Assembly (NCBI RefSeq): GCF_041083635.1
Contig: NZ_JBFPHB010000013.1
Location: 19,529 to 83,528 of the forward strand
Source of the DNA: Leptothrix ochracea
GTDB taxonomy: Bacteria > Pseudomonadota > Gammaproteobacteria > Burkholderiales > Burkholderiaceae_C
DNA: 64,000 nt
Reading direction: 5' to 3'
Position 1 is the first letter of the stretch; each line of letters opens with the position of its first letter. A program made the translations under genes and the position numbers. The notes beneath the pieces are model-generated. The model worked only from the letters and a program-made list of their open reading frames with translations, was not told the DNA's origin and ran no database searches. Of this stretch, positions 2,285 through 58,739 are shown piece by piece.

Positions 2285-2784
2285 GGCGCGGCCACTTTGG
2301 AAAGCTCACGCCGAATCGCCGCAATGTCGGCTTCTTTGCGCGCAATGGCGGCCTTCATGTCAGCGACCCGTTCTTGGTAACGCGAGAAATTACGCTCCTC
2401 GCCACGACGCTCAGGCTCGCCGCCGTTGTAATCCTTCTGCATCTGCGCCAGCCGCTCTTCGTCCTTGCGCAACTCGGCTTCCAAGATACGTCGCGCATCG
2501 CTGTCACGGGCACGCTGCTCAGCTGGATCGACCCGCACCGCACTGGCTGGGCCCGAAGCGCCTCCCGCCGCGGACGACCCCGCTCGACGAGGGGTGGACG
2601 ATTGAACGACCGTGACCGGCGCACCATCCAAGGTCTTGCAACCCCGGGCCGCAGCCTCTTTGACACTGATCTGATCGGTGTACAGATTGCCGGGGCATCG
2701 GTACACCTGACGGTCCTGAGCATGGGCCGAGCTCAAGGTCAAGCCCAACACACCAGCAACAGACCACAGCACGATGCGTGACAT
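2281..2784 (-). CDS. Secreted DUF4124-like protein with C-terminal coiled coil
   Basis: Signal peptide, VYRCPG..YTD motif, coiled-coil tail; 4-bp overlap with ntrB start. Confidence 0.7.
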   Translation of the reverse strand: MSRIVLWSVAGVLGLTLSSAHAQDRQVYRCPGNLYTDQISVKEAAARGCKTLDGAPVTVVQSSTPRRAGSSAAGGASGPASAVRVDPAEQRARDSDARRILEAELRKDEERLAQMQKDYNGGEPERRGEERNFSRYQERVADMKAAIARKEADIAAIRRELSKVAAP

Positions 2785-2832
2785 TCAATGAACTCCAGTG
2801 ATCATGATTTCCAAGCGAGGCGAGTATGGCGC

Positions 2833-2863
2833 AAAAAAAGAGACGGCCTTGGCGGCCGTCTCT
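2833..2863 (-). terminator. Intrinsic terminator after glnA
   Basis: AGAGACGGCC-ttggc-GGCCGTCTCT hairpin with an A-run on + strand (U-run on - strand). Confidence 0.75.
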
Positions 2864-2911
2864 CGTCGTGTGCGCGAGCAAGTTGGCCGCCTTAGGAGCG
2901 ACCAAAAAGCC

Positions 2912-4327
2912 TCACAGACTGTAGTACATGTCGAACTCGATCGGATGAGTTGTCATGCGCATGCGCGTGACTTCTTGCATCTTCAACTCGATGTAGGCAT
3001 CAATGTACGAATCGGTGAACACGCCACCCTTGGTCAGGAAGGCACGACCCTTGTCCAAGTATTCGAGCGACTGCTCCAAGCTCGAGCACACGGTCGGGAT
3101 CAGCGCGTCTTCTTCTGGCGGCAGGTGATACAGATCCTTCGTGGCGGGCTCGCCCGGATGGATCTTGTTTTCCACGCCGTCCAGACCGGCCATCAACAGC
3201 GCGGCAAAACCCAAGTACGGGTTCATCAAAGGATCGGGGAAACGGGCTTCGACGCGACGGCCCTTCGGGTTCGGCACGTGCGGGATACGGATCGAAGCCG
3301 AGCGGTTCTTGGCCGAGTAAGCCAACTTCACCGGAGCTTCGTAACCCGGCACCAAACGCTTGTAGCTGTTGGTGCCCGGGTTGGTGATCGCGTTCAGCGC
3401 GCGAGCGTGCTTGATGATGCCGCCGATGTAGTACAGGGCGAATTCCGACAGACCTGCATAGCCGTCGCCAGCGAACAAGTTCTTGCCGTCTTTCCACACC
3501 GACTGGTGCACGTGCATGCCGCTACCGTTGTCGCCAACGATGGGCTTGGGCATGAACGTGGCGGTCTTGCCGTAGGCTGCCGCGACGTTATGGATGATGT
3601 ACTTTTGCAGCTGAACCCAGTCAGCGCGCTGGATCAGCGTGCTGAACTTGGTGCCGATTTCCATCTGACCCGCGTTGGCCACTTCGTGGTGATGCACTTC
3701 AACCGGGATGCCCATGGCTTCCAAGATCAAGCACATTTCCGAACGCATGTCTTGGCCGGAATCGACCGGGGGCACGGGGAAGTAGCCGCCCTTGACGGTC
3801 GGGCGGAAGCCCTTGTTGCCGTGCTCGTAGTCCTTGCCGGTGTTCCAAGCCGCTTCTTCCGATTCGATCGAAACGAAGCAACCCGACATATCGGCGTTCC
3901 AACGCACGCTGTCGAAGACGAAGAATTCAGGTTCCGGACCGAAGTAGGCGGTGTCGCCCAAGCCGGTGGACTTCATGTAGGCTTCGGCGCGCTTGGCCAA
4001 GGAGCGCGGATCGCGCTCGTAGGGCTTGCCGTCACCCGGCTCGATCACATCACAGGTGAGGATCAGGGTCGGTTCATCGAAGAACGGGTCGATGTTGGCG
4101 GTATTGGGATCCGGCAACAGGATCATGTCCGAAGCTTCGATGCCCTTCCAGCCAGCGATCGAAGATCCGTCGAACGCATGACCCGACGCGAATTTGTCTT
4201 CGTCAAAAGCAGAAATGGGCACGGAAACGTGCTGTTCCTTGCCACGGGTGTCTGTGAAGCGGAAATCAACGAACTTGACTTCGTTTTCTTTCACCAGCTT
4301 CATCACGTCGGCGACGTTCTTGGCCAT
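2912..4327 (-). CDS. glnA: Glutamine synthetase type I
   Basis: [33 protein letters not shown], adenylylation region [10 protein letters not shown]; start taken at MAKNV. Confidence 0.98.
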
Positions 4328-48194: not shown

Positions 48195-48224
48195 TCGGGT
48201 TTTCCAACCTTGTTCTTTCTGCCC

Positions 48225-50567
48225 ATGATGCCCATCCGCTCGACACGCTGGATCGGGTTGATGGTGCTGGGTGCCACGCTGACTGCGGCACTGGCATTGA
48301 TCTTCCTGCTGACCATCGCCACTCAGAATCTAGCCCGTTACGAACGCCACTTCGACTGGCTCCTCACGATCAATATCAGCGTGGCCGCCATCCTTGGTGT
48401 GGCGGTTGTCATCACGGGGGTACGTCTGATAAGGCGGGTACGCAAGGGGCAATTCGGCAGCCGCCTGCTGCTGAAGCTGGCCGCCACCTTCGCCTTGGTG
48501 GGTGCGGTTCCAGGCACCCTGATTTATCTAGTGTCCTATCAGTTCGTCTCCCGCAGCATCGAGAGCTGGTTTGACGTCGAGATTGAACAGGCCTTGGAGT
48601 CTGGACTCAGCCTTGGCCGCACCAGCTTGCAGGTTCTCAGCAGTGGCTTGGCCAACAAAACACGCCTAGCCACCGATCGCTTGGCCGAGATGCCGGCATC
48701 GCAGCAAGTGATTTCCTTGGAGCGCATACGAGAACAACTGGGGGCCGACGACGTGATGCTTTTGTCGGACAACGGTCAGGTTTTGGCCTCCGCCCATGGG
48801 TCGCTCGAACATCACGTCACCCCTCCACGCCCCACGCCCAGCCAGATGCGCCAAGCCCAGTCGCTACGCGTCCAAACCAGTGTGGAGGGGCTGGAGGAAC
48901 ACGACCCCGACAATGCAACAGGCCTCCAACCCGCGCCAGTGCGTGCACGCATTCAAGCCTTGGCATGGATTGCGTCGAGCACCTTTGCTCTGGACGACAG
49001 CCATGAACGCTATTTGCAAGTGACGCAGCAAATTCCGGTGGAACTGGCGACCAATGCCCTGGCGGTAGCCTCCGCCTACAAGGAATATCAGCAGCGCATG
49101 CTGGGGCGGATGGGGCTGCGCAAGATGTACATCGGCACCCTGACGCTCACCCTGATCTTGGCGCTGTTTTGTGCCTTGCTGATGGCCGCTGCCTTGGGCC
49201 AACAACTGGCGCGACCCTTGCTGCTCTTGGCCGAGGGCGTCAACCAAGTGGCCCAAGGTGACCTACGCCCCAAGGCCGTCTTTGCTTCACGTGATGAGCT
49301 TGGCGGTCTGACACGTTCGTTCGCGCTCATGACGGAACAACTCGATGATGCACGCACGCAGCTTCACACCAGCCTGACTGAACTGGAAAGCGCTCGCACG
49401 CATTTGCAAACCATTCTCGACAATCTCACAGCAGGTGTGATCGTCTTCGATCTGGAAGGACACATCGATACAGTCAACCCGGGTGCCTTGCGTATCCTGC
49501 GCGCTCCAACGGGATCAACGTGGCGCGGGCAACGGCTCGACCACATCCCCGGACTCGCCGGACTCGCCCATGCCATCGAACACCATTTCACCGCCCACGC
49601 CCACACTCATGACCCTGACAGCACCGACCCCGATCACTGGCAGGACTCGCTGGAGCTTCAATCTCAAGCCGAGCACGATGTGCTGACGCTGCTTGTTCGC
49701 GGCGCTTCCTTGCCCAGCAAAACTCGGCTGATCGTTTTCGATGACATCAGCGACGTCGTCTCGGCCCAACGCAGCGTGGCATGGGCCGAAGTGGCCCGCC
49801 GTCTGGCCCACGAAATCAAGAATCCCCTGACCCCCATTCAACTGTCGGCGGAGCGCATTCAGCACAAGCTGGAAAACCGCCTTGAAGGCACGGATCGACA
49901 GTTGCTGGTGAAGTCAGTTGCCACCATCGTGGCGCAAGTCCAGTCCATGAAACAACTGGTCAACGAGTTCCGCGACTACTCCCGCCTGCCCTCCGCCAAT
50001 CTGACCCCCCTCGACTTGAATGCGTTGGTGGCAGAAGTCTTGGGGCTGTACGGCAACGCCCTCGAAACGGGCTTGCTGCGCGCAGAAACCACCCCGGATC
50101 TACCCACCATCCAAGGCGACACCACCCAACTTCGTCAAGTCATCCATAACTTGGTGCAAAACGCCTTGGACGCCGTGGCCCAACGGAACGAGGGCCGTGT
50201 CATGGTTCGCACGGAGATCGTCAACGATGAGCATGGCGCAGTTCGATCGGTGCGACTCAAGGTCATCGACAACGGCCCAGGCTTCACCGACAAGGTGCTC
50301 AAACGCGCTTTTGAGCCTTACGTCACCACAAAACCCAAGGGCACGGGACTCGGTCTGGCGGTGGTCAAGAAAATCGCCGAAGAACATGGGGCACGTGTAA
50401 GAATTCAAAATCTTGGTGACGAGATAGGTACTTTTGGTGGCGAATTCACGGGAAATGGCGCCCAAGTTTCGATAACATTTGTTCGTTCGGTCCTCGGTGC
50501 ACCTGCTTCGAAAGAGACCTCGCCTCCTAACCCTGCAACCATGATTACCGGCCCACGGGCTTCCTGA
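48225..50567 (+). CDS. NtrY-family sensor histidine kinase (PlrS/EsaS-like)
   Basis: TM helices, SIESWFD, HAMP, PAS, RRLAHEIKNPLTPIQLSAE, GTGLGL. Confidence 0.9.
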   Translation: MMPIRSTRWIGLMVLGATLTAALALIFLLTIATQNLARYERHFDWLLTINISVAAILGVAVVITGVRLIRRVRKGQFGSRLLLKLAATFALVGAVPGTLIYLVSYQFVSRSIESWFDVEIEQALESGLSLGRTSLQVLSSGLANKTRLATDRLAEMPASQQVISLERIREQLGADDVMLLSDNGQVLASAHGSLEHHVTPPRPTPSQMRQAQSLRVQTSVEGLEEHDPDNATGLQPAPVRARIQALAWIASSTFALDDSHERYLQVTQQIPVELATNALAVASAYKEYQQRMLGRMGLRKMYIGTLTLTLILALFCALLMAAALGQQLARPLLLLAEGVNQVAQGDLRPKAVFASRDELGGLTRSFALMTEQLDDARTQLHTSLTELESARTHLQTILDNLTAGVIVFDLEGHIDTVNPGALRILRAPTGSTWRGQRLDHIPGLAGLAHAIEHHFTAHAHTHDPDSTDPDHWQDSLELQSQAEHDVLTLLVRGASLPSKTRLIVFDDISDVVSAQRSVAWAEVARRLAHEIKNPLTPIQLSAERIQHKLENRLEGTDRQLLVKSVATIVAQVQSMKQLVNEFRDYSRLPSANLTPLDLNALVAEVLGLYGNALETGLLRAETTPDLPTIQGDTTQLRQVIHNLVQNALDAVAQRNEGRVMVRTEIVNDEHGAVRSVRLKVIDNGPGFTDKVLKRAFEPYVTTKPKGTGLGLAVVKKIAEEHGARVRIQNLGDEIGTFGGEFTGNGAQVSITFVRSVLGAPASKETSPPNPATMITGPRAS

Positions 50568-50572
50568 AATCC

Positions 50573-51415
50573 ATGGCCACTATTCTTGTCGTCGATGATG
50601 AACTGGGCATCCGTGCCCTGCTGTACGAAATCCTCACGGACGAGGGGCATGCCGTAGAGCTGGCTGAGAACGCCGCCCAAGCGCGCACGATCCGGGAGCT
50701 CAAACGGCCTGACTTGGTGCTGCTCGACATCTGGATGCCCGATGTCGATGGCATCACACTTCTCAAGGAATGGGGCGCGGGTCCCTCGCCGCTCAACATG
50801 CCCGTGATCATGATGTCAGGACACGGCACGATCGATACAGCGGTCGAAGCCACCAAATATGGTGCGATTGCTTTTCTTGAAAAGCCCATCACGCTGCAAA
50901 AACTCTTGCGGGCCGTCGAGCACAGCTTGGCCAAAGCCAGCCAGAAAGCCGCTGTACCGTCACCCGCTGCGTCGAGCGTGACAACCCCAACGGCGGCCGG
51001 ATCCAGTGGTTCCGCAACGCCCAACTATTCGACCCCCTTCCACGCAGCCGAACGGGCCACAGGCCTCGGCGGGGCTGAAGGGACAAGCCACGCCGCAACC
51101 TCACCCCAGCCTATGCCCGCCCTCTCCGGCGCAGGGAACATCCATGCGGCGGCGCAACTGGAAAGCTTGAATGAAGCCATCCCCTTAGCCGTAAGCAGCA
51201 CAGGCCCGGCCTACGAACAGCGCTTCGTGCTCAACAAGCCCCTGCGTGAGGCCCGTGATGCCTTTGAAAAGGCCTATTTCGAATTTCACTTGGCCACCGA
51301 AAACGGCAGCATGACCCGCGTTGCCGAGCGCACCGGCCTAGAGCGCACGCATCTTTATCGCAAGCTCAAGCAGCTCGGGGTGGACCTCTCCCGCAGTCGC
51401 CGGAGTGGTCACTGA
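50573..51415 (+). CDS. NtrX-like response regulator lacking the AAA+ domain (PlrR/EsaR-like)
   Basis: REC domain (DIWMPD), low-complexity linker, Fis HTH ERTHLYRKLK. Confidence 0.88.
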   Translation: MATILVVDDELGIRALLYEILTDEGHAVELAENAAQARTIRELKRPDLVLLDIWMPDVDGITLLKEWGAGPSPLNMPVIMMSGHGTIDTAVEATKYGAIAFLEKPITLQKLLRAVEHSLAKASQKAAVPSPAASSVTTPTAAGSSGSATPNYSTPFHAAERATGLGGAEGTSHAATSPQPMPALSGAGNIHAAAQLESLNEAIPLAVSSTGPAYEQRFVLNKPLREARDAFEKAYFEFHLATENGSMTRVAERTGLERTHLYRKLKQLGVDLSRSRRSGH

Positions 51416-51487: not shown

Positions 51488-51563
51488 GGCCAAGTAGCTC
51501 AGTCGGTAGAGCAGCGGATTGAAAATCCGCGTGTCGGTGGTTCGATTCCGCCCTTGGCCACCA
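51488..51563 (+). tRNA. tRNA-Phe (GAA)
   Basis: 76 nt GGCCAAG..CTTGGCCACCA, anticodon loop TTGAAAA, T-loop GTTCGATT, encoded CCA. Confidence 0.97.
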
Positions 51564-51570
51564 AAATCAA

Positions 51571-51604
51571 GCAAAACGCCAATCCTCCGGGGTTGGCGTT
51601 TTGC
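51571..51604 (+). terminator. Intrinsic terminator after tRNA-Phe
   Basis: GCAAAACGCCAA..TTGGCGTTTTGC hairpin followed by T-rich sequence. Confidence 0.8.
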
Positions 51605-51639
51605 TTTGTGCAAAGCCATGGAGTTCTTCGAACCGAGCC

Positions 51640-52056
51640 ATGAGATCCTCGATTCACATCGTCGATGTTGATCGACTGGAAACTTGGACCCGCTATCGGC
51701 AGGGTCTGTGCGACAGCTGCGCGGCCAACTGCTGCACCATGCCGGTCGAGATCCGGCTCGCTGACCTCGTGCGCTTGGGGCTGGTCGATCCCTTTGAAGC
51801 TGAACACGAAGAACCTCGCCTCATCGCTAGGCGTCTGGTCAAGTCTCGACAGGTCGAGCGCTACAACCACAAAGATGGCCTCTTCACCATGGCCCGGCGC
51901 GCCAACGGCGATTGCCAGTTTCTTGACGCCCAAACCCGCCGTTGCACGGTCTACGAGCAGCGCCCCAACACGTGCCGCAAGCATCCTCAGGTGGGACCCA
52001 AGCCGGGGTACTGCCCTTACGGCGCCCGAGTCAAGTCGCTGACACCTTCCGCGTAA
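51640..52056 (+). CDS. YkgJ-family cysteine cluster (CxxCxxxCC) protein
   Basis: LCDSCAANCC, DCQFL, RCTVYEQRPNTCR. Confidence 0.85.
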   Translation: MRSSIHIVDVDRLETWTRYRQGLCDSCAANCCTMPVEIRLADLVRLGLVDPFEAEHEEPRLIARRLVKSRQVERYNHKDGLFTMARRANGDCQFLDAQTRRCTVYEQRPNTCRKHPQVGPKPGYCPYGARVKSLTPSA

Positions 52057-52676
52057 AGTTGAATCGAGAGGCTTCGATCGGCATCGAATTCAAAGTGCAG
52101 GCGAGATGGAAGCAGTCCGAGGTGATGTGCCTGCACGGCAAGCGCCAAGAGTTGCTCAATTTGAGGGCGGACCGTCTCATCGGGTCGCGGATCACAAACA
52201 AGGTCATCAGCCGCTGACGGCTGGATGCAATCGATGCGATAAGGCAGGCTTATCGCCAGATCTCGGTGGCTTTGGGCGAGTTGCTGACCCAAGGCTTGGA
52301 CCCGTGCTACGCGCTGCTGCGCCTCCACATACGCCCGGTAAGCAAGCTCACCGGACATGCCCATGCCGGTGAGGTGCGACGGCGGCCGAAACACGGCGAC
52401 CGGCACAACATCTTCTGCACGCAAGATCACAGGCGCTGAGGCCACCGGAGGGGGTACAGGAACAACGGGCCCCGCACGAGTCCGCCGCCCCCTCATCCGC
52501 GGACGTGGTGGCAGGGGAGCCGGCATCCGTACAGCACGCACGACCCTCGTTTTAAACACACCATGCCTCAAAGACACCGAGGGAGAAGAGGTGAAAAAGG
52601 GCTGATGCATCAGCATGGCAGCATGCAGCGCCACGCTGATCAGCCCGGCAAAGACGACGCAGCGTACTTGCAGCAC
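52017..52676 (-). CDS. Hypothetical membrane-anchored Pro-rich protein (TonB/TolA-like architecture)
   Basis: GTG start with GAGGA SD; TM with SVALH (S-x3-H); Pro/Arg-rich linker; globular tail with 2 Cys. Confidence 0.55.
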   Translation of the reverse strand: MLQVRCVVFAGLISVALHAAMLMHQPFFTSSPSVSLRHGVFKTRVVRAVRMPAPLPPRPRMRGRRTRAGPVVPVPPPVASAPVILRAEDVVPVAVFRPPSHLTGMGMSGELAYRAYVEAQQRVARVQALGQQLAQSHRDLAISLPYRIDCIQPSAADDLVCDPRPDETVRPQIEQLLALAVQAHHLGLLPSRLHFEFDADRSLSIQLYAEGVSDLTRAP

Positions 52677-52691
52677 GCGGTCCTCACGGAC

Positions 52692-54989
52692 TCACTGAAT
52701 CACACCATGGATGACGCCAAAGCCACCGCTGACACTGGGCTGAGAGCCGATGTAGAAGGGATCGGCGGCACTGCTTGGGTCATGCAGGCTGGCGGCTGAG
52801 GGCAACGTCTGCGGGTTCAACGCCAGCCCGGCACAAGCACTCGGCGTGGTCTTGCCCAGACGAACTTCCGCGTTCAGTGCCTTCACGATCAGCGGCGTGC
52901 TGGCAGCACCCGCCATGCCCGGCAAAGTCATCGTGGCGCCGTCCGTCAACGCAAAGACCGGCACAAAACGCACGTTGCCGCCATCACAGGGGGCCGGCTG
53001 GTTATCCACCGGATTCACACAACTCCCGGGAATGCCAAACAGGTTGCCAAAACCGTTGAACTGCAACTGAATGGTTTTGCCCACCCAAACCCCGGTGGGG
53101 TCATCCGTGGCACTGATTGGGTACTGGATGTTGCGTGGCGGGTCGAAACTCATCACTTGGGCATTGCTGGTGCGCGTCAGCCATGTGGATTGATTCCACG
53201 ACTGCACACCCGTTTCCCACGTGTAGTACGTGGCGGGTGCTTGCGGTTCACAAACCGTTGCCGACATACCCATGTAGGGCGGTGTGCATGACGTCAGCGG
53301 TGCGGTGAACAACCGACCCGTCATCACGCCCCCCATGTATTGGGACGAGAAGTGACTGGGGTTGGTGTCCGTCACCGGAGCCCCCGACTCTTTCAGACCC
53401 GAGCCGTCAAAGGTGTAATGCACCGACTGCGCACCGTACATCCACTGCTGCCCGGTACCGCTGCCAAAAGGCCCATTCATGCCGGTGAACGCAGCCAGCG
53501 AGGCAGCCGTGGGGCAATTGCTCATGCAGTAAAAATCGGTGGGGGCACCGGCACTGCCAGGCAACACTACGTTTTGGGTGTAGTACGTCACCGCATCCGT
53601 CCCCACATGGGCCACGCCGGTCGAAGGCACGTTCACATTGCCACCCACCGCATCCGACCACCCCGAAAGCGGCATACCCGCCAAGGCAGCCGCGCCGATC
53701 TTGGCAGCTGGAGTGACCGAGGCCACCACACACCCCGTGGGGTTGCAACTCTGCTTGCCCGTCACATAAACCGCCGCAGTGGTTTTGTCCCAATGGGCCT
53801 GCCATGTGTTGAAGCCTGTGACCGACGGGTTATCCGTCAGGCTGGCTTGCGGGTTCGTGGGATCACTCAGGTTGCCCCAGAAAAACATCGGGATACCGTC
53901 CACCGCATCCAGCGTGGTGCTGCCTTGACTCCACTGTGTCAGCTTACCGCTGACCTTGGAGAGGCTGTAGACGTTGGTGTTGTTGGGGCGCTGATCGGTG
54001 ATGGTGTAGCCGTTGACCAAGCCGTCGGGCAAAGCCCCCAGATCCACCCCTTGGAGGTTGAGTCCCCAGTAGCCGGCATAACCGTAGACCTTGCTGCCGT
54101 CAGCCGTCTTGGTCGCCACGATCGGAAAGCCTGGATGGACCGTATCGACCCGCGCACCCGTGACAGCGTCGTACGTGCCGTAGCTCCATACGGATTTGTT
54201 CGCCTGAGCGATGGAACGGTTGAAACACACATCGTTGGCGGTGTCGCTGCGCCGAAAGAGCGCACTGTCATAGGCGAAATCAAAACTTGTGCCATTGACC
54301 GCCATGGTCCCAGCACCCGACGTGGTGGACGCCGCCGCCATGGTCAAACCGTTAACCCGCAAAGGATTGCCCGGCTCGGTGTTGCGCTCGAAGTAACTGA
54401 TGGCCCCGGCGGACGAGTCGATAAAGCCATTGAACATTTGCAGCCCACCCGACTGACCCGCGTAGTCGAGGCGAAACACCCCATACGGCGGCACATCGGT
54501 CGGCGACTGGCTGGCCGCAACACGCACATCCACCGTCACGGGCATGCCGTTGCCGTTGTTGAAGCTCAACCAAACCTTGGCGATCATCGGCGCGCTGTTG
54601 CTGGCCCGAGAAACGTTGACCACCGCATTCATATAGGACGGCGTGGCCTCGGCTGCCGAAGACGTTGCCGTGGAGTTGCTGGCGTTGGCACGCTTGGACG
54701 AGTCGCACTTGTTCTGATCCACCAAAGCGCTGTAGAGCACACTCACACTGCCATCGGCAGCAGCAGTGCCCTTTTGGTCCAGCATCTCGGCTGGGCGCAT
54801 CGCGTTCATGATGCAAAGCACCATGTTGAGCTGATTGACCCCATCCGAGGTGGCGTCTTGGACATAGACGTTTTGGGGATCGGTGTAGTACGGCGAGGCG
54901 GTATCGGCAGGTGCCGCCATCAAGGGCGAGGCCAGCCCCAACAAAGCCACCGCAGACGCCACACGGGTAAGACGCAGCTTCATGATCAT
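52692..54989 (-). CDS. Large secreted Cys-rich hypothetical protein (765 aa)
   Basis: Sec signal MIMKLRLTRVASAVALLGLASPLMA; 12 Cys; beta-strand-rich T/S/G/N composition. Confidence 0.85.
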   Translation of the reverse strand: MIMKLRLTRVASAVALLGLASPLMAAPADTASPYYTDPQNVYVQDATSDGVNQLNMVLCIMNAMRPAEMLDQKGTAAADGSVSVLYSALVDQNKCDSSKRANASNSTATSSAAEATPSYMNAVVNVSRASNSAPMIAKVWLSFNNGNGMPVTVDVRVAASQSPTDVPPYGVFRLDYAGQSGGLQMFNGFIDSSAGAISYFERNTEPGNPLRVNGLTMAAASTTSGAGTMAVNGTSFDFAYDSALFRRSDTANDVCFNRSIAQANKSVWSYGTYDAVTGARVDTVHPGFPIVATKTADGSKVYGYAGYWGLNLQGVDLGALPDGLVNGYTITDQRPNNTNVYSLSKVSGKLTQWSQGSTTLDAVDGIPMFFWGNLSDPTNPQASLTDNPSVTGFNTWQAHWDKTTAAVYVTGKQSCNPTGCVVASVTPAAKIGAAALAGMPLSGWSDAVGGNVNVPSTGVAHVGTDAVTYYTQNVVLPGSAGAPTDFYCMSNCPTAASLAAFTGMNGPFGSGTGQQWMYGAQSVHYTFDGSGLKESGAPVTDTNPSHFSSQYMGGVMTGRLFTAPLTSCTPPYMGMSATVCEPQAPATYYTWETGVQSWNQSTWLTRTSNAQVMSFDPPRNIQYPISATDDPTGVWVGKTIQLQFNGFGNLFGIPGSCVNPVDNQPAPCDGGNVRFVPVFALTDGATMTLPGMAGAASTPLIVKALNAEVRLGKTTPSACAGLALNPQTLPSAASLHDPSSAADPFYIGSQPSVSGGFGVIHGVIQ

Positions 54990-54995
54990 GCCCCT

Positions 54996-55169
54996 TCAGT
55001 GGGTGGTGGCTGTCACCACCGAGACACTGCCCGGCATGCCCACACCTTTGACGGTGCTGGTGTTCGTCGTCCCGCCTCCAGAGGAAGAACCACCCGAAGA
55101 CCCGCCGCCACAAGCTGCAAGCCACGGCAACCCCATCGCCAAAACCCAAACGATCAGCAATTTGTTCAT
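54996..55169 (-). CDS. 57-aa lipoprotein with Gly/Ser tether
   Basis: GAAGGAG SD, lipobox LAA-C20, GGGSSGGSSSGGG linker, C-terminal GVGMPGSVSVVTA. Confidence 0.85.
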   Translation of the reverse strand: MNKLLIVWVLAMGLPWLAACGGGSSGGSSSGGGTTNTSTVKGVGMPGSVSVVTATTH

Positions 55170-55436
55170 GGTGACTCCTTCAGAAAACGTCAAGGCCACA
55201 CTCACGGTCCCTTGTAGCAGCCTTGGCCTTTTTCAACGGAGTATCCGAGCCGACTTAGACTTGCATCAACAAGGCCCCGACATGGGACTTTTCAAGCCAC
55301 CACGGAAAGCGCACGCTTAACAGTTTTGGGGCCACTTTCACCCGCCTGTCCATGCACCACATCGAAAACGGGTCGATATCCTCCCTCATGAATCGCCTGG
55401 CCAGTCATGTCGACTTTCAACACGGACCCCACATGC

Positions 55437-56810
55437 TCAATCGGGCTTGCCTTCTAGGGTTTTCAAACGCCGATACAAGGTCCGCTCACTGACGCCTAAA
55501 CGCTGGGCCAGTTCGGCACGGCTACCGCGATGCGCCAAGACTTCAGCGCGCAAAAGATCGCGGCTGAGATCGTGCAAGGAGCGTGGCGGGACGGCTGCTT
55601 CGGCGGGTGGCACGGTGCTGGGCGAAGCGGGTGGGGGGCTCACCGCTTCACGGGCAGCGCGACTGAACTCAGGTGTCAGGGCTTCTTCAACGTGGTGCGG
55701 CTCCAGCACCGGACCATCACAGAGCAAGCTGGCGCGCTCAAGCAAGTTGCGCAATTCGCGCACATTGCCGGGAAAATCATAGGCCGACAGCAGTTCGAGC
55801 GTGGCGGGAGCCAGCGTCACCGGCCCATCGCGCCGCAGGCGTGCCAGCAATGCGGGGACCAGCAGGGCCAGATCCTCACGACGTTCACGCAGCGGCGGCA
55901 AGTGGATCGGAAAGGTACTGAGCCGGAAATAGAGATCGGAGCGAAACAGATTCTGCGAAGCCATGTCGCGCAGATCACGATGCGTGGCGGAGATGACCCG
56001 AATATCGGCGTGACGCCACTCCGTCGAACCAACCCGGCGGTACGTGCCGGATTCAAGCAAGCGCAGCAACTTGACCTGCATCGGCAACGGAATCTCGCCG
56101 ACTTCGTCGAGAAACAGCGTGCCCCCGCTCGCTGATTCCACCAGACCTTGCTTTTGATGGGTGGCCCCGGTGAAGGAGCCTCGCTCGTGACCGAAAAGCT
56201 CGCTCTCAAACAAATGTTCGGGCAAGCTGGTGCAGTCCAGCACCACCAGCGGCTTGTGTGCCCGGCGGCTGGCGGCATGCACCGCACGCGCCACCAATTC
56301 TTTGCCCGTGCCCGACTCCCCTTGGAGCAACACCGTGGCCTCGCTCGGGGCCACGCGGGCCACCTTTTGCAACATGCGCTGGAAAGCCGGGGCACGCCCC
56401 ACCAGCTCCCATCCAGCTGCCGCTGCGGTCGCTGACGACACGGTGCGCACGGCTTCCATTTTTTCGACAAAGTACGCCATCTCGCCTTCGGCATTGCGCA
56501 AGGGCAACAACTCAATGTTGACGTAGGCCTCGCCCTTGGGCGTGTGGTGCAAATGCAAGACGCGCTCACGCTGTCCCGAACTACGGGCCTTGGCCAAAGG
56601 GCAACATTCACCCGCTTGATCGCAGGGCACGCTGAAGTGGTGCGAAACCTCGTAGCACGTCCGGCCCACCACACTGCCTTCGGGACTGAACTGCTTGCGA
56701 TACGCCGCGTTGGCCGCAAGGATGCGGTACTGGCGATCAAACAAGATATGCGGCTCGGCGAGCCCTTCTAGGTATGACACCAACTCGGGCAACAACTTCA
56801 CGCCAGGCAT
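55437..56810 (-). CDS. FisR-type PAS / sigma54 AAA+ / Fis-HTH activator
   Basis: [40 protein letters not shown]; PAS Cys52/63/69/70. Confidence 0.9.
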
Positions 56811-56840
56811 CTGACACCTCTTTTCATGGGTCGCCGATTG

Positions 56841-56875
56841 TGTCAGAGCACTGCCATAACTGTCAGTGAGCGTCA
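56841..56875 (+). promoter_or_regulatory. Candidate activator enhancer (phased TGYCA repeats)
   Basis: TGTCA 56841, TGCCA 56852, TGTCA 56861, CGTCA 56871. Confidence 0.6.
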
Positions 56876-56993
56876 GTAAAGCCATCCCCTGGATGCAACA
56901 AATCGCCCCCCTCGGGGGGGCTCCTTGAGGCTTAAACGTGCATAAATGCCTCGACGAAGGGGCGACGCCCCACTTTTGGACCTCATACACGGC

Positions 56994-57008
56994 TGGCATG
57001 GTTCTTGG
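56994..57008 (+). promoter_or_regulatory. sigma54-like promoter of the cyd operon
   Basis: TGGCATG-GTTC-TTGG: good -24 box, correct spacing, -12 C replaced by G. Confidence 0.6.
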
Positions 57009-57040
57009 AATACATAGGGTATTCACGCAAAGCATCTGCC

Positions 57041-57190
57041 ATGTCACCCAACCTCTCGCACGACCCGCACCACGCCCCAAAGCCAGTGCGCCAACGCCTC
57101 AGCCTATCCCTGAGCAGCGAACTAACCCTGATCATCCTCATCAAGCTCGTCGCACTCTGGATGCTTTGGGCCCTGACAAGGAGTGCATGA
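57041..57190 (+). CDS. CydP-like small membrane protein (49 aa)
   Basis: Single TM ELTLIILIKLVALWMLW ending 1 nt before the cydA ATG. Confidence 0.65.
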   Translation: MSPNLSHDPHHAPKPVRQRLSLSLSSELTLIILIKLVALWMLWALTRSA

Positions 57191-57191
57191 C

Positions 57192-58739
57192 ATGTCTGAC
57201 CAACTTGTGGATGTGTCACGGCTGCAATTCGCCGTCACCGCGCTTTATCACTTCCTGTTTGTGCCCTTGACCATCGGCATGACATGGATGCTGGTCATCA
57301 TGGAAAGCGTTTACGTCATGACCGGCCAAGTGGTTTGGAAGGACATGACGCGCTTTTGGGGCAAGTTGTTCGGCATCAACTTCGCCTTGGGCGTGACCAC
57401 CGGCATCACGATGGAGTTTCAGTTCGGCACCAACTGGGCTTACTACTCGCACTATGTGGGTGATGTCTTCGGCGCACCGCTGGCCATCGAAGGGCTGATG
57501 GCCTTCTTCCTCGAATCGACTTTCATCGGTCTGTTTTTCTTCGGCTGGGACCGTCTCGCGCGCACCCAACATTTGTTGGTGACCATCCTGATGGCGCTGG
57601 GCACCAATCTGTCCGCGCTGTGGATTCTGATCGCCAATGGCTGGATGCAAAACCCGGTCGGGGCTGAGTTCAGCTGGCAGACCATGCGCATGGAAATGGT
57701 CGATTTCTGGGCCGTGCTCTTCAACCCGGATGCTCAAGCGAAGTTTGTGCACACCGTCTCGGCCGGCTACGTGACCGGTGCGATGTTCGTGCTCTCGATC
57801 TCGTCGTGGTACTTGCTCAAAGGCCAAGACGTGGCCTTTGCCCGACGCAGCTTCCGCGTGGCCTCCGCCTTCGGTCTGGCCTCGGTGTGCTCGGTGATCG
57901 TGCTGGGCGATGAGTCCGGCTACACCGTGGGCGAAGCCCAGCAAACCAAGATGGCCGCGATCGAAGCCATGTGGGACACCGAACCCGCGCCAGCAGCTTT
58001 CAACCTGATCGCTTGGCCCAACGAGGCCGAGATGAAAAACGACTGGGCGATCGAAATTCCGTGGGTGATGGGGCTGATCGGCACGCGCTCCATCCACAAG
58101 GAAATTCCTGGCATCAAAGAACTGATCGCCCGCAACCGCACCCGCATCGTCTCGGGCATCGAAGCCGTCAAGGCACTGGACACGCTGCGCCACGATCGCA
58201 GCCACCGAGAAGCGGAGTCCGTCCTCAAGCAGCATCAAGCCAATCTCGGCTTCGGTTTGCTGATGCGCAAATATGTCAAGTCGATGGCGGAGATCACCCC
58301 CGCGCTGATCGACCAAGCGGCCCGCGACACCATCCCCAAGGTCACACCGATGTTCTGGGGCTTCCGTGCCATGGTCGGTTTGGGCATGGGCATGCTGCTG
58401 CTTTTTGCGACCGCGTTCTGGTCCACGCTCAAGGTGCGCTGCGGTGAACAACGCTGGTTGCTGCGCTGGGCCCTGCTGATGCTGCCCGCCCCTTGGCTGG
58501 CGTGTGAGTTGGGCTGGTTTGTGGCGGAGTATGGCCGCCAACCGTGGACGATCTACGGCGTGCTGCCCACGCACCTTTCGGTGTCAAGCATCAGTGTCGA
58601 GAGCGTCTATCGCTCTTTGGCGGGCTTTGTCGCCTTCTACACGGTGCTGCTGATCATCGAAATGGGTTTGATGATTCGCTTTGCTCGCCTCGGTCCCGGC
58701 AGTCTCGGTACCGGCCGCTACGCCAACGAAACCCATTGA
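57192..58739 (+). CDS. cydA: Cytochrome bd ubiquinol oxidase subunit I (long Q-loop)
   Basis: YHFLFVP, EFQFGTNW, KFVHT, KMAAIE, FRAMVG, GWFVAEYGRQPW. Confidence 0.97.
   Translation: MSDQLVDVSRLQFAVTALYHFLFVPLTIGMTWMLVIMESVYVMTGQVVWKDMTRFWGKLFGINFALGVTTGITMEFQFGTNWAYYSHYVGDVFGAPLAIEGLMAFFLESTFIGLFFFGWDRLARTQHLLVTILMALGTNLSALWILIANGWMQNPVGAEFSWQTMRMEMVDFWAVLFNPDAQAKFVHTVSAGYVTGAMFVLSISSWYLLKGQDVAFARRSFRVASAFGLASVCSVIVLGDESGYTVGEAQQTKMAAIEAMWDTEPAPAAFNLIAWPNEAEMKNDWAIEIPWVMGLIGTRSIHKEIPGIKELIARNRTRIVSGIEAVKALDTLRHDRSHREAESVLKQHQANLGFGLLMRKYVKSMAEITPALIDQAARDTIPKVTPMFWGFRAMVGLGMGMLLLFATAFWSTLKVRCGEQRWLLRWALLMLPAPWLACELGWFVAEYGRQPWTIYGVLPTHLSVSSISVESVYRSLAGFVAFYTVLLIIEMGLMIRFARLGPGSLGTGRYANETH

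Follow-up and report, generated by a model that had tools for sequence, protein, structure and literature searches.

The adaptor lipoproteins of the NlpI-Prc, LbcA-CtpA, and LpoA/LpoB-PBP1A/1B systems localize separately exported soluble proteins to the membrane by non-covalent binding. In chaperone-usher donor-strand complementation (FimC-FimH, PapD-PapG), a short Val-rich extended segment is supplied non-covalently to another polypeptide in the periplasm. LptM (YifL), which binds the LptD/E translocon, is a tiny lipoprotein with a lipid anchor, a disordered Gly/Ser-rich region, a short functional peptide, and a large beta-rich partner. In Rosetta-stone fission/fusion pairs and in split tags (split-GFP strand 11, SpyTag/SpyCatcher), one chain elsewhere corresponds to two chains that reassemble, small fragment with large. 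Each of these bears a likeness to a gene pair on the minus strand of a 64,000-nucleotide stretch of the Leptothrix ochracea genome (contig NZ_JBFPHB010000013.1, positions 19,529 to 83,528; hereafter the window). Judged from sequence, a widespread lipoprotein of ~800 residues has here been divided in two: a lipid-anchored peptide of 38 residues and a body of 740 residues that is secreted on its own. We consider it probable, with moderate confidence, that the conserved tail of the small lipoprotein anchors the body non-covalently in trans.

The locus also departs from each of these systems. NlpI, LbcA, LpoA, and LpoB are folded tetratricopeptide repeat (TPR) or globular proteins with regulatory roles, whereas the candidate adaptor here is a leash plus a motif of ~17 residues, and is evidently the detached N-terminus of its own partner. 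Relative to the chaperone-usher systems, the donor would be a 38-residue lipopeptide instead of a chaperone or a neighboring pilin, with no polymer, usher, or immunoglobulin (Ig)-like pilin fold; neither the pair nor its neighbors match pilins, ushers, or chaperones in Pfam or PDB. LptM differs in that it acts via its N-terminal lipidated end, is not encoded beside lptD, and is an assembly factor. In concept, the arrangement comes closest to Rosetta-stone fission pairs and engineered split tags, although the present pair is natural, resides in the cell envelope, and has an export signal on each half: signal peptidase II (SPII) type on the small one and signal peptidase I (SPI) type on the large one. 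Unlike in covalent split tags, no covalent bond is expected, the acylated Cys being the only residue of the mature peptide that would suggest one. We know of no described case in which a lipid anchor is the small fragment of a fission pair, and literature searches on 'lipo-invert' and on small lipoproteins with strand complementation yielded nothing closer and nothing on this family.

Gene Pair at the Leptothrix ochracea Locus

The small lipoprotein gene (54996..55169, minus strand; 57 codons) encodes a 57-aa precursor, MNKLLIVWVLAMGLPWLAAC|GGGSS...MPGSVSVVTATTH (also written MNKLLIVWVLAMGLPWLAAC-GGGSSGGSSSGGGTTNTSTVKGVGMPGSVSVVTATTH), with a mature form of 38 aa, as read from the sequence and the list of open reading frames (ORFs). 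The precursor has the features of a lipoprotein signal sequence, MNKLLIVWVLAMGLPWLAA-C, with Lys3, a hydrophobic core, and the lipobox L-A-A-C, the Cys20 codon of which lies at 55110-55112. Residues 21-38 (55056..55109) form a low-complexity leash of Gly, Ser, and Thr, and are followed by a putative C-terminal docking motif, T39-A54, TVKGVGMPGSVSVVTA (55008..55055), shortly before the TGA stop at 54996-54998. The protein is identical to one in the protein collection (P0206).

The large gene on the same strand (ORF 52692..54989) is in frame with the small gene and opens two codons past the TGA, the minus strand reading ...GTC TCG GTG GTG ACA GCC ACC ACC CAC TGA AGG GGC ATG ATC ATG AAG CTG.... 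Its product is 765 aa long from ATG 54989 and 763 aa from ATG 54983. The latter is the probable start (gene 52692..54983): AGGGG stands 7 nt ahead of it, and it is the start used in P0001, a 763-aa L. ochracea protein that is 99% identical. The junction (54984..54998) thus comprises the TGA, the Shine-Dalgarno-like AGGGGC, and ATGATC. A separate Sec signal peptide for SPI (54915-54983; MKLRLTRVASAVALLGLASPLMA|AP) heads the large protein, which has no lipobox Cys and a mature body of ~740 aa. An equivalent signal peptide with an AxA-like ending occurs in 120/120 listed homologs, and a lipobox in none of the 120. An earlier reading made from the letters and ORF list alone (the sequence-only reading) had described the CAC TGA AGG GGC ATG junction, an 825-aa product on read-through, a signal peptide on the second part, and Shine-Dalgarno-like bases before it; all are present, the read-through frame having 825 codons, the signal peptide being of the Sec type and the bases AGGGG ahead of ATG 54983.

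Conservation of the Pair and of the Tail Motif

For comparison, 51 large-protein loci were fetched from genome assemblies, plus several from metagenomes, and the start and the preceding ORF were located in each; frame, gap, and stop were measured over 42 distinct split-type loci. In 46/47 intact split-type loci, the large gene is directly preceded by a small lipoprotein gene of 47-58 codons, an adjacency far beyond chance. Genes farther out vary between loci, none of them being consistently linked. Among the intact split-type loci, only L043 (~2700..3000) lacks a clean small gene; its reading is ambiguous, and the GGC-rich part may be frameshifted, in that a lipobox-like ORF continues into a frame of the WWRWW type, and NPVVEVVAP is in frame with the large gene. 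This could reflect an assembly error or a different arrangement.

Within the small protein, the alignment and the position counts over the 42 loci show conservation only of the lipobox Cys (invariant in 38/38 aligned homologs) and of the last ~17 residues, with the family consensus (T/A)VxG(V/L/I)xTPxxVSVVTA(N/K)-stop. The VSVVTA tail to which the sequence-only reading had drawn attention is thus, besides the lipobox, the sole conserved part of the protein. Between the Cys and the tail there is no conserved column; this region is rich in Gly, Ser, Thr, Ala, and Pro, and varies in sequence and length, such that mature small proteins are 28-50 aa long in correctly delimited rows (mostly ~30-37). 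At the invariant Val, the 42 loci use GTC (18), GTG (13), GTA (7), and GTT (4). Synonymous codons are fully mixed at conserved positions, so the target of selection is the peptide rather than a DNA or ribosome-binding element.

The two genes also appear to be lost together: in L052, a second copy in the same metagenome-assembled genome (MAG) as L005, both are degraded. There, the large gene lacks a signal peptide and has an internal stop, and the upstream lipoprotein gene is frameshifted, still ending in ...VTAN. In the window, metatranscriptome contigs cover both genes and span the junction (54414-55179 in run X17; 54592-55490 in run X18), and the pair is co-transcribed according to these contigs, which may hold DNA. 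The gap between the genes is 5-33 nt (mode 10) in 40/42 loci, the other two overlapping by 1 and 4 nt, and GGAG- or GGGG-like bases directly follow the stop at homologous loci. The short gap and the position of the Shine-Dalgarno bases directly behind the stop suggest that translation of the two genes is coupled.

A profile of the small protein retrieved 1126 proteins at a permissive E <= 10, the best 120 of which (all E <= 4e-12) are 48-79 aa long. Two library families were considered and set aside. The LptM family (NF047847) scores 12-19 bits, against a cut-off of 27.7, and the match covers residues 1-21, which are signal peptide only. The NCBIfam family NF058595 ('invert_tail'/'lipo-invert', a C-terminal anchoring domain) matches 24/38 small lipoproteins weakly, at best with 20.5 bits against a cut-off of 37; this lead was dropped because scans of fragments trace the match to the signal peptide and the Gly/Ser region, the tail alone giving nothing.

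Single-Chain Relatives and Apparent Repeated Fission

The same parts occur elsewhere within one chain. A Planctomycetota protein (locus L054) reads MDFRS...LALPAC-SGSGSDSPATISALTAPTGVSVVEAD-(linker)-AFVADAASVQIFDPS...ANQILC..., and this plan recurs in fourteen further full-length proteins, the fused set comprising P0121-P0135. In these chains, the lipobox, motif, and body follow in the same order without a second signal peptide. When a profile of the fused set was compared with 1.84 billion cluster representatives (50% identity clusters), 1216 representatives matched at E <= 1e-3, of which 543 reached E <= 1e-30. Of the best 150 of the 1216, ~100 combine, in one lipoprotein chain, a lipobox, a Gly/Ser leash, the motif xVxGLxxPxxVSVVxA, a variable linker of 18-50 residues, and the body. 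In fused P0264, which reads ...VNGLDLPSAVSVVTAN-GTSGG..., the tail of the small protein runs on into the linker. The sequence-only reading had pointed to proteins in which a Gly/Ser lipoprotein N-terminus with PxxVSVV precedes a domain of the type Y..D...V.D...N..LC, and had proposed a search for fused and split homologs; both forms were found, and the fused proteins are real and commoner than the split ones. The single chain is the common form of the family, and is probably the ancestral state.

In ~10 of the best 150 representatives, a long coiled-coil-like or Ig-like N-terminus takes the place of the lipid anchor, and the motif is kept directly before the body. Such proteins (P0273-P0282, P0295, P0314, P0320, P0339, P0368) are 915-1459 aa long, with an N-terminal region that is either Lys/Ala/Glu-rich (coiled-coil-like) or Ig-like, and retain GLxxPxxVSVV at this position.

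The body of the window protein aligns end to end with the fused forms at 23-32% identity, and the fused-form profile in turn retrieves split-type bodies. Shared features are an N..ILC helix region, LQ(F/Y)NG.G.L.GIPG, and a C-terminal VIDGVxQ. The window pair thus belongs to the family of VSVV-motif lipoproteins (fused forms P0121-P0135, and P0256 onward), with the motif and the lipid anchor located on a separate upstream gene product. The large protein has at least 289 homologs, none with a Pfam domain, and the body matches nothing in sequence searches of Pfam, NCBIfam, or PDB. It is present in the iron-oxidizers Leptothrix ochracea, Gallionella, and Sideroxydans, and is covered by metatranscriptome contigs from iron mats.

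The split has arisen more than once, to judge from the sequences. A few of the best 150 representatives are of the split type, with an SPI signal peptide only, and DNA was fetched for four of them: P0386 (Chitinivorax sp. B, WP_137936139.1), P0404, P0388, and P0370. In all four, a lipoprotein gene precedes the large gene, with products ending in ...GLQVAEQVSVVEAK, ...SLTVSNNVSVVDAK, ...GLSVANKVSVVEAKTN, and ...ALPERVSVVEDSGSQ; the closing residues are VSVVEAK, VSVVDAK, VSVVEAKTN, and VSVVEDSGSQ. In a neighbor-joining tree of the bodies, the split proteins of the window type form one clade, and the P0386 group and P0370 stand among fused forms. This arrangement suggests that fission took place independently at least 2-3 times, the cut in each case falling two to six residues past VSVV.

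The reverse event may be recorded in fused P0135 (L055 417..2927, 836 aa), in which a hydrophobic stretch followed by AAS (IAPLVLGAVIGDLPAAS|DY) lies between VSVV and the body. The stretch IAPLVLGAVIGDLPAAS may be a fossil second signal peptide, from a split pair that was re-fused through loss of the stop.

Structure Predictions and Proposed Anchoring in trans

The AlphaFold2 model of the window body alone has a mean predicted local distance difference test (pLDDT) score of 80.3 and a predicted template modeling score (pTM) of 0.70, with a short helical N-terminal part and then many strands; the body is modeled as mostly beta-strand, with conserved Cys pairs. Its invariant residues are mostly Gly, Pro, and Trp, plus two Cys, and give no hint of catalysis. 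For the natural fused protein P0125, the mean pLDDT is 85.3 and the pTM 0.78. Residues 1-39 of this model (signal peptide and leash) have a pLDDT < 50, and the block before the motif scores 34; the block at residues 41-50 (GVSVVEPDTS) rises to 74, and the next two blocks score 61 and 70. Order in the predicted chain thus begins at the motif, which fits docking of the motif on the body. Foldseek searches against PDB with the window body and with fused P0125 gave nothing better than E = 0.02, with template modeling (TM) scores <= 0.15 (~0.1 for the window body).

The following course of events is proposed. The ancestral form would have been a single lipoprotein of ~750-850 residues, comprising a lipoprotein signal peptide, a lipidated Cys, a disordered Gly/Ser leash, a motif of ~14-17 residues, a variable linker, and a beta-rich body. 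In a clade that includes Leptothrix, Gallionella, Burkholderiales, and Steroidobacterales, the gene would have been cut two to four codons past the motif, after which the body would have gained its own Sec signal peptide. Both halves would then be exported separately, the small one via SPII and the large one via SPI. Acylation of the 38-residue lipopeptide would follow, with the outer membrane as its probable destination to judge from Gly at the +2 position, whilst the body would be set free in the periplasm. There, the tail of the lipopeptide would rebind the body non-covalently, either as an extended peptide in a groove or as an added beta-strand, and so restore the body to a flexible lipid leash of ~20 residues.

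Gene linkage, conservation confined to the lipobox and the tail, and the existence of fused forms therefore provide good indirect support for anchoring in trans through the motif. The same three observations fit the proposal of the sequence-only reading that the lipoprotein holds the secreted protein at the membrane; the shared reading frame, from which that proposal set out, carries no signal (see below). The anchoring idea is partly supported, and is worth testing. For the bolder claim, that a tail peptide of ~17 residues suffices to hold a secreted protein of 740 residues on the membrane in trans, and that this arrangement was reached repeatedly by cutting at the same point, we put the chances slightly below even.

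Several considerations weigh against anchoring in trans. In the fused forms, the motif is flanked on both sides by variable linkers, a pattern that would also be expected of a short linear motif with some third component as its target. The DSSP assignment on the P0125 model places no strand before residue 78, so none at VSVV, and the confidence of the model at and after the motif is moderate. Fused and split proteins were classified by regular expressions and by reading N-termini by eye; the neighbor-joining tree has no support values and is only indicative; and the metatranscriptome (RNA) contigs may hold contaminating DNA.

The family as a whole is large, comprising 1216 or more clusters at 50% identity; it is unnamed in every library searched and has no relative in Pfam, NCBIfam, or PDB, and its architecture is now defined as lipid anchor, leash, motif, linker, and body. 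The split forms amount to a natural experiment that singles out the short motif as the connector of anchor and body, and a hypothetical protein thereby becomes a directly testable peptide-protein interaction. Genetics should be feasible, as a split form occurs in the cultured Chitinivorax sp. B (WP_137936139.1). Should binding in trans prove true, this would be, to our knowledge, the first case of a lipoprotein anchor that survives as a free-standing lipopeptide and recaptures its former body. The cut could then make anchoring reversible, and allow the stoichiometry or release of the body to be regulated apart from the anchor; the pair could also serve as a portable peptide and receptor, providing a small envelope-tethering tag for bacterial proteins.

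Alternative Explanations

A more specific form of binding was put forward in the sequence-only reading, namely that the tail GSVSVVTA fills a missing strand in a sheet of the body, as in donor-strand complementation of pili. The segment VSVVTA is rich in beta-branched residues in an alternating pattern, the motif occupies the same position in the fused forms, and the body is mostly beta, with order beginning at the motif in the fused model. However, DSSP marks residues 1-60 of P0125 as non-strand, so that no beta-ladder with the body is predicted; Foldseek found no structural relative with an incomplete fold in PDB; and no chaperone or usher genes are nearby. We regard a donor strand as possible and somewhat doubtful.

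The main rival explanation, which we consider unlikely, is that the motif does not bind the body and instead acts as a short linear motif for binding to some third component, such as an outer-membrane protein, a machine for surface export of lipoproteins, or the TonB-like product of the downstream gene, with the lipopeptide and the body acting as separate subunits or clients. The position of the motif as an island between two variable low-complexity linkers in fused forms would agree with this, as would the lack of a DSSP strand and the moderate confidence at the motif in the monomer model. A membrane-anchored, Pro-rich protein with an S-x3-H signature also follows the pair in ~13/46 loci. This third gene is nevertheless absent from most loci, with no other gene consistently linked to the pair, and order in the monomer prediction still sets in at the motif. 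Furthermore, a cargo-less lipopeptide of 30 residues with a sorting motif only would offer no evident reason for the translational coupling to the body to be kept in >40 genomes and through at least 2-3 independent fissions.

Programmed read-through of the in-frame TGA, or its recoding as selenocysteine or tryptophan, would yield an 825-residue lipoprotein beside the two separate products. The arrangement in the window invites this reading, with the genes in frame and a single TGA between them; fused homologs exist, and the fossil-like second signal peptide of P0135 indicates that fusion via stop loss may have happened in nature. Across the 42 loci, however, the genes are in frame in 16 (38%, against 33% expected by chance; binomial test against 1/3, p = 0.52), and the two overlapping pairs are out of frame. 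The in-frame relation is a coincidence. TAA, TAG, and TGA all serve as stops of the small genes, TAA and TAG being as common as TGA, and in all split loci the large gene comes with a Shine-Dalgarno sequence and a signal peptide of its own. Neither the identity of the stop nor the frame is conserved in the manner of programmed read-through or selenocysteine recoding. Moreover, the iron-mat metatranscriptome contig of run X17 derives from a co-occurring strain with changes at window positions 54990, 54995, and 54997; the change at 54997 (C>T on the plus strand) turns the TGA into TAA, and AGG and GGC become GGG and GGA, such that the stop is kept and the Shine-Dalgarno match is improved. Read-through of the TGA is a tempting reading that proved wrong and is now removed from consideration, its residual probability being very small.

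The least probable explanation, with a negligible chance of being correct, is that a single lipoprotein gene is interrupted here by a recent nonsense mutation or by an error of sequencing, or that the small gene is a functionless decaying remnant, as the prevalence of single-chain homologs in the family might suggest: the junction is letter-identical across contigs of four independent DNA runs, and is therefore not a sequencing error; a separate signal peptide invariably heads the large protein; the motif is under purifying selection at the protein level; metatranscriptome contigs cover both genes; and the sole degraded small gene accompanies a degraded large gene. A sense codon at the stop position in close relatives, which the sequence-only reading had named as the mark of such a mutation or error, was looked for and not found, as a stop is present in 42/42 measured split loci and the co-occurring strain reads TAA. 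Read-through and an error or pseudogene are effectively excluded.

Downstream Gene and Genomic Neighborhood

Downstream of the large gene on the same strand, an ORF of 219 aa (52017..52676) encodes a protein that matches no Pfam family. Its N-terminal membrane helix bears a TonB-like S-x3-H signature (ISVALHAA), and a Pro-rich spacer separates this helix from a C-terminal part containing a Cys pair. The loci in which a comparable ORF directly follows the large gene include independent split lineages (L056, L058, L059), presence being judged by position, the membrane helix, and the S-x3-H signature. As the proteins can scarcely be aligned with one another, a hidden Markov model (HMM) built from four of these downstream ORFs gives weak matches only (E 5e-4 to 4e-3). 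The 219-aa protein may be a third member or partner of the module.

On the other side, a gene for a sigma-54 activator (55437..57080, minus; PAS_4, Sigma54_activat, HTH_8) lies upstream on the same strand, its end 267 nt away from the small gene. Within the spacer, GGGGCCTTGTTGATGCA (~55258..55277, minus) has the GG-N10-GC spacing of a -24/-12 promoter and is otherwise a poor match. A scan for the sigma-54 pattern with three mismatches returned 406 sites against 382 expected, which is no better than chance, and a scan for sigma-70 promoters returned nothing.

Beyond the 219-aa ORF, the plus strand carries an ORF with a CxxCxxCC domain (51601..52056) and, between it and a response-regulator gene, a tRNA-Phe (GAA) gene (51488..51563). 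The response regulator belongs to a two-component pair (48210..51415, plus), in which it follows a HAMP/HisKA/HATPase_c histidine kinase of 785 aa. The regulator, of 280 aa, has a Fis-type HTH_8 and no sigma-54 AAA+ domain, and by eye the layout of the pair is NtrY/NtrX-like. Divergent from the sigma-54 activator gene, the plus strand encodes cytochrome bd oxidase subunit I (57183..58739; Pfam E = 4e-173).

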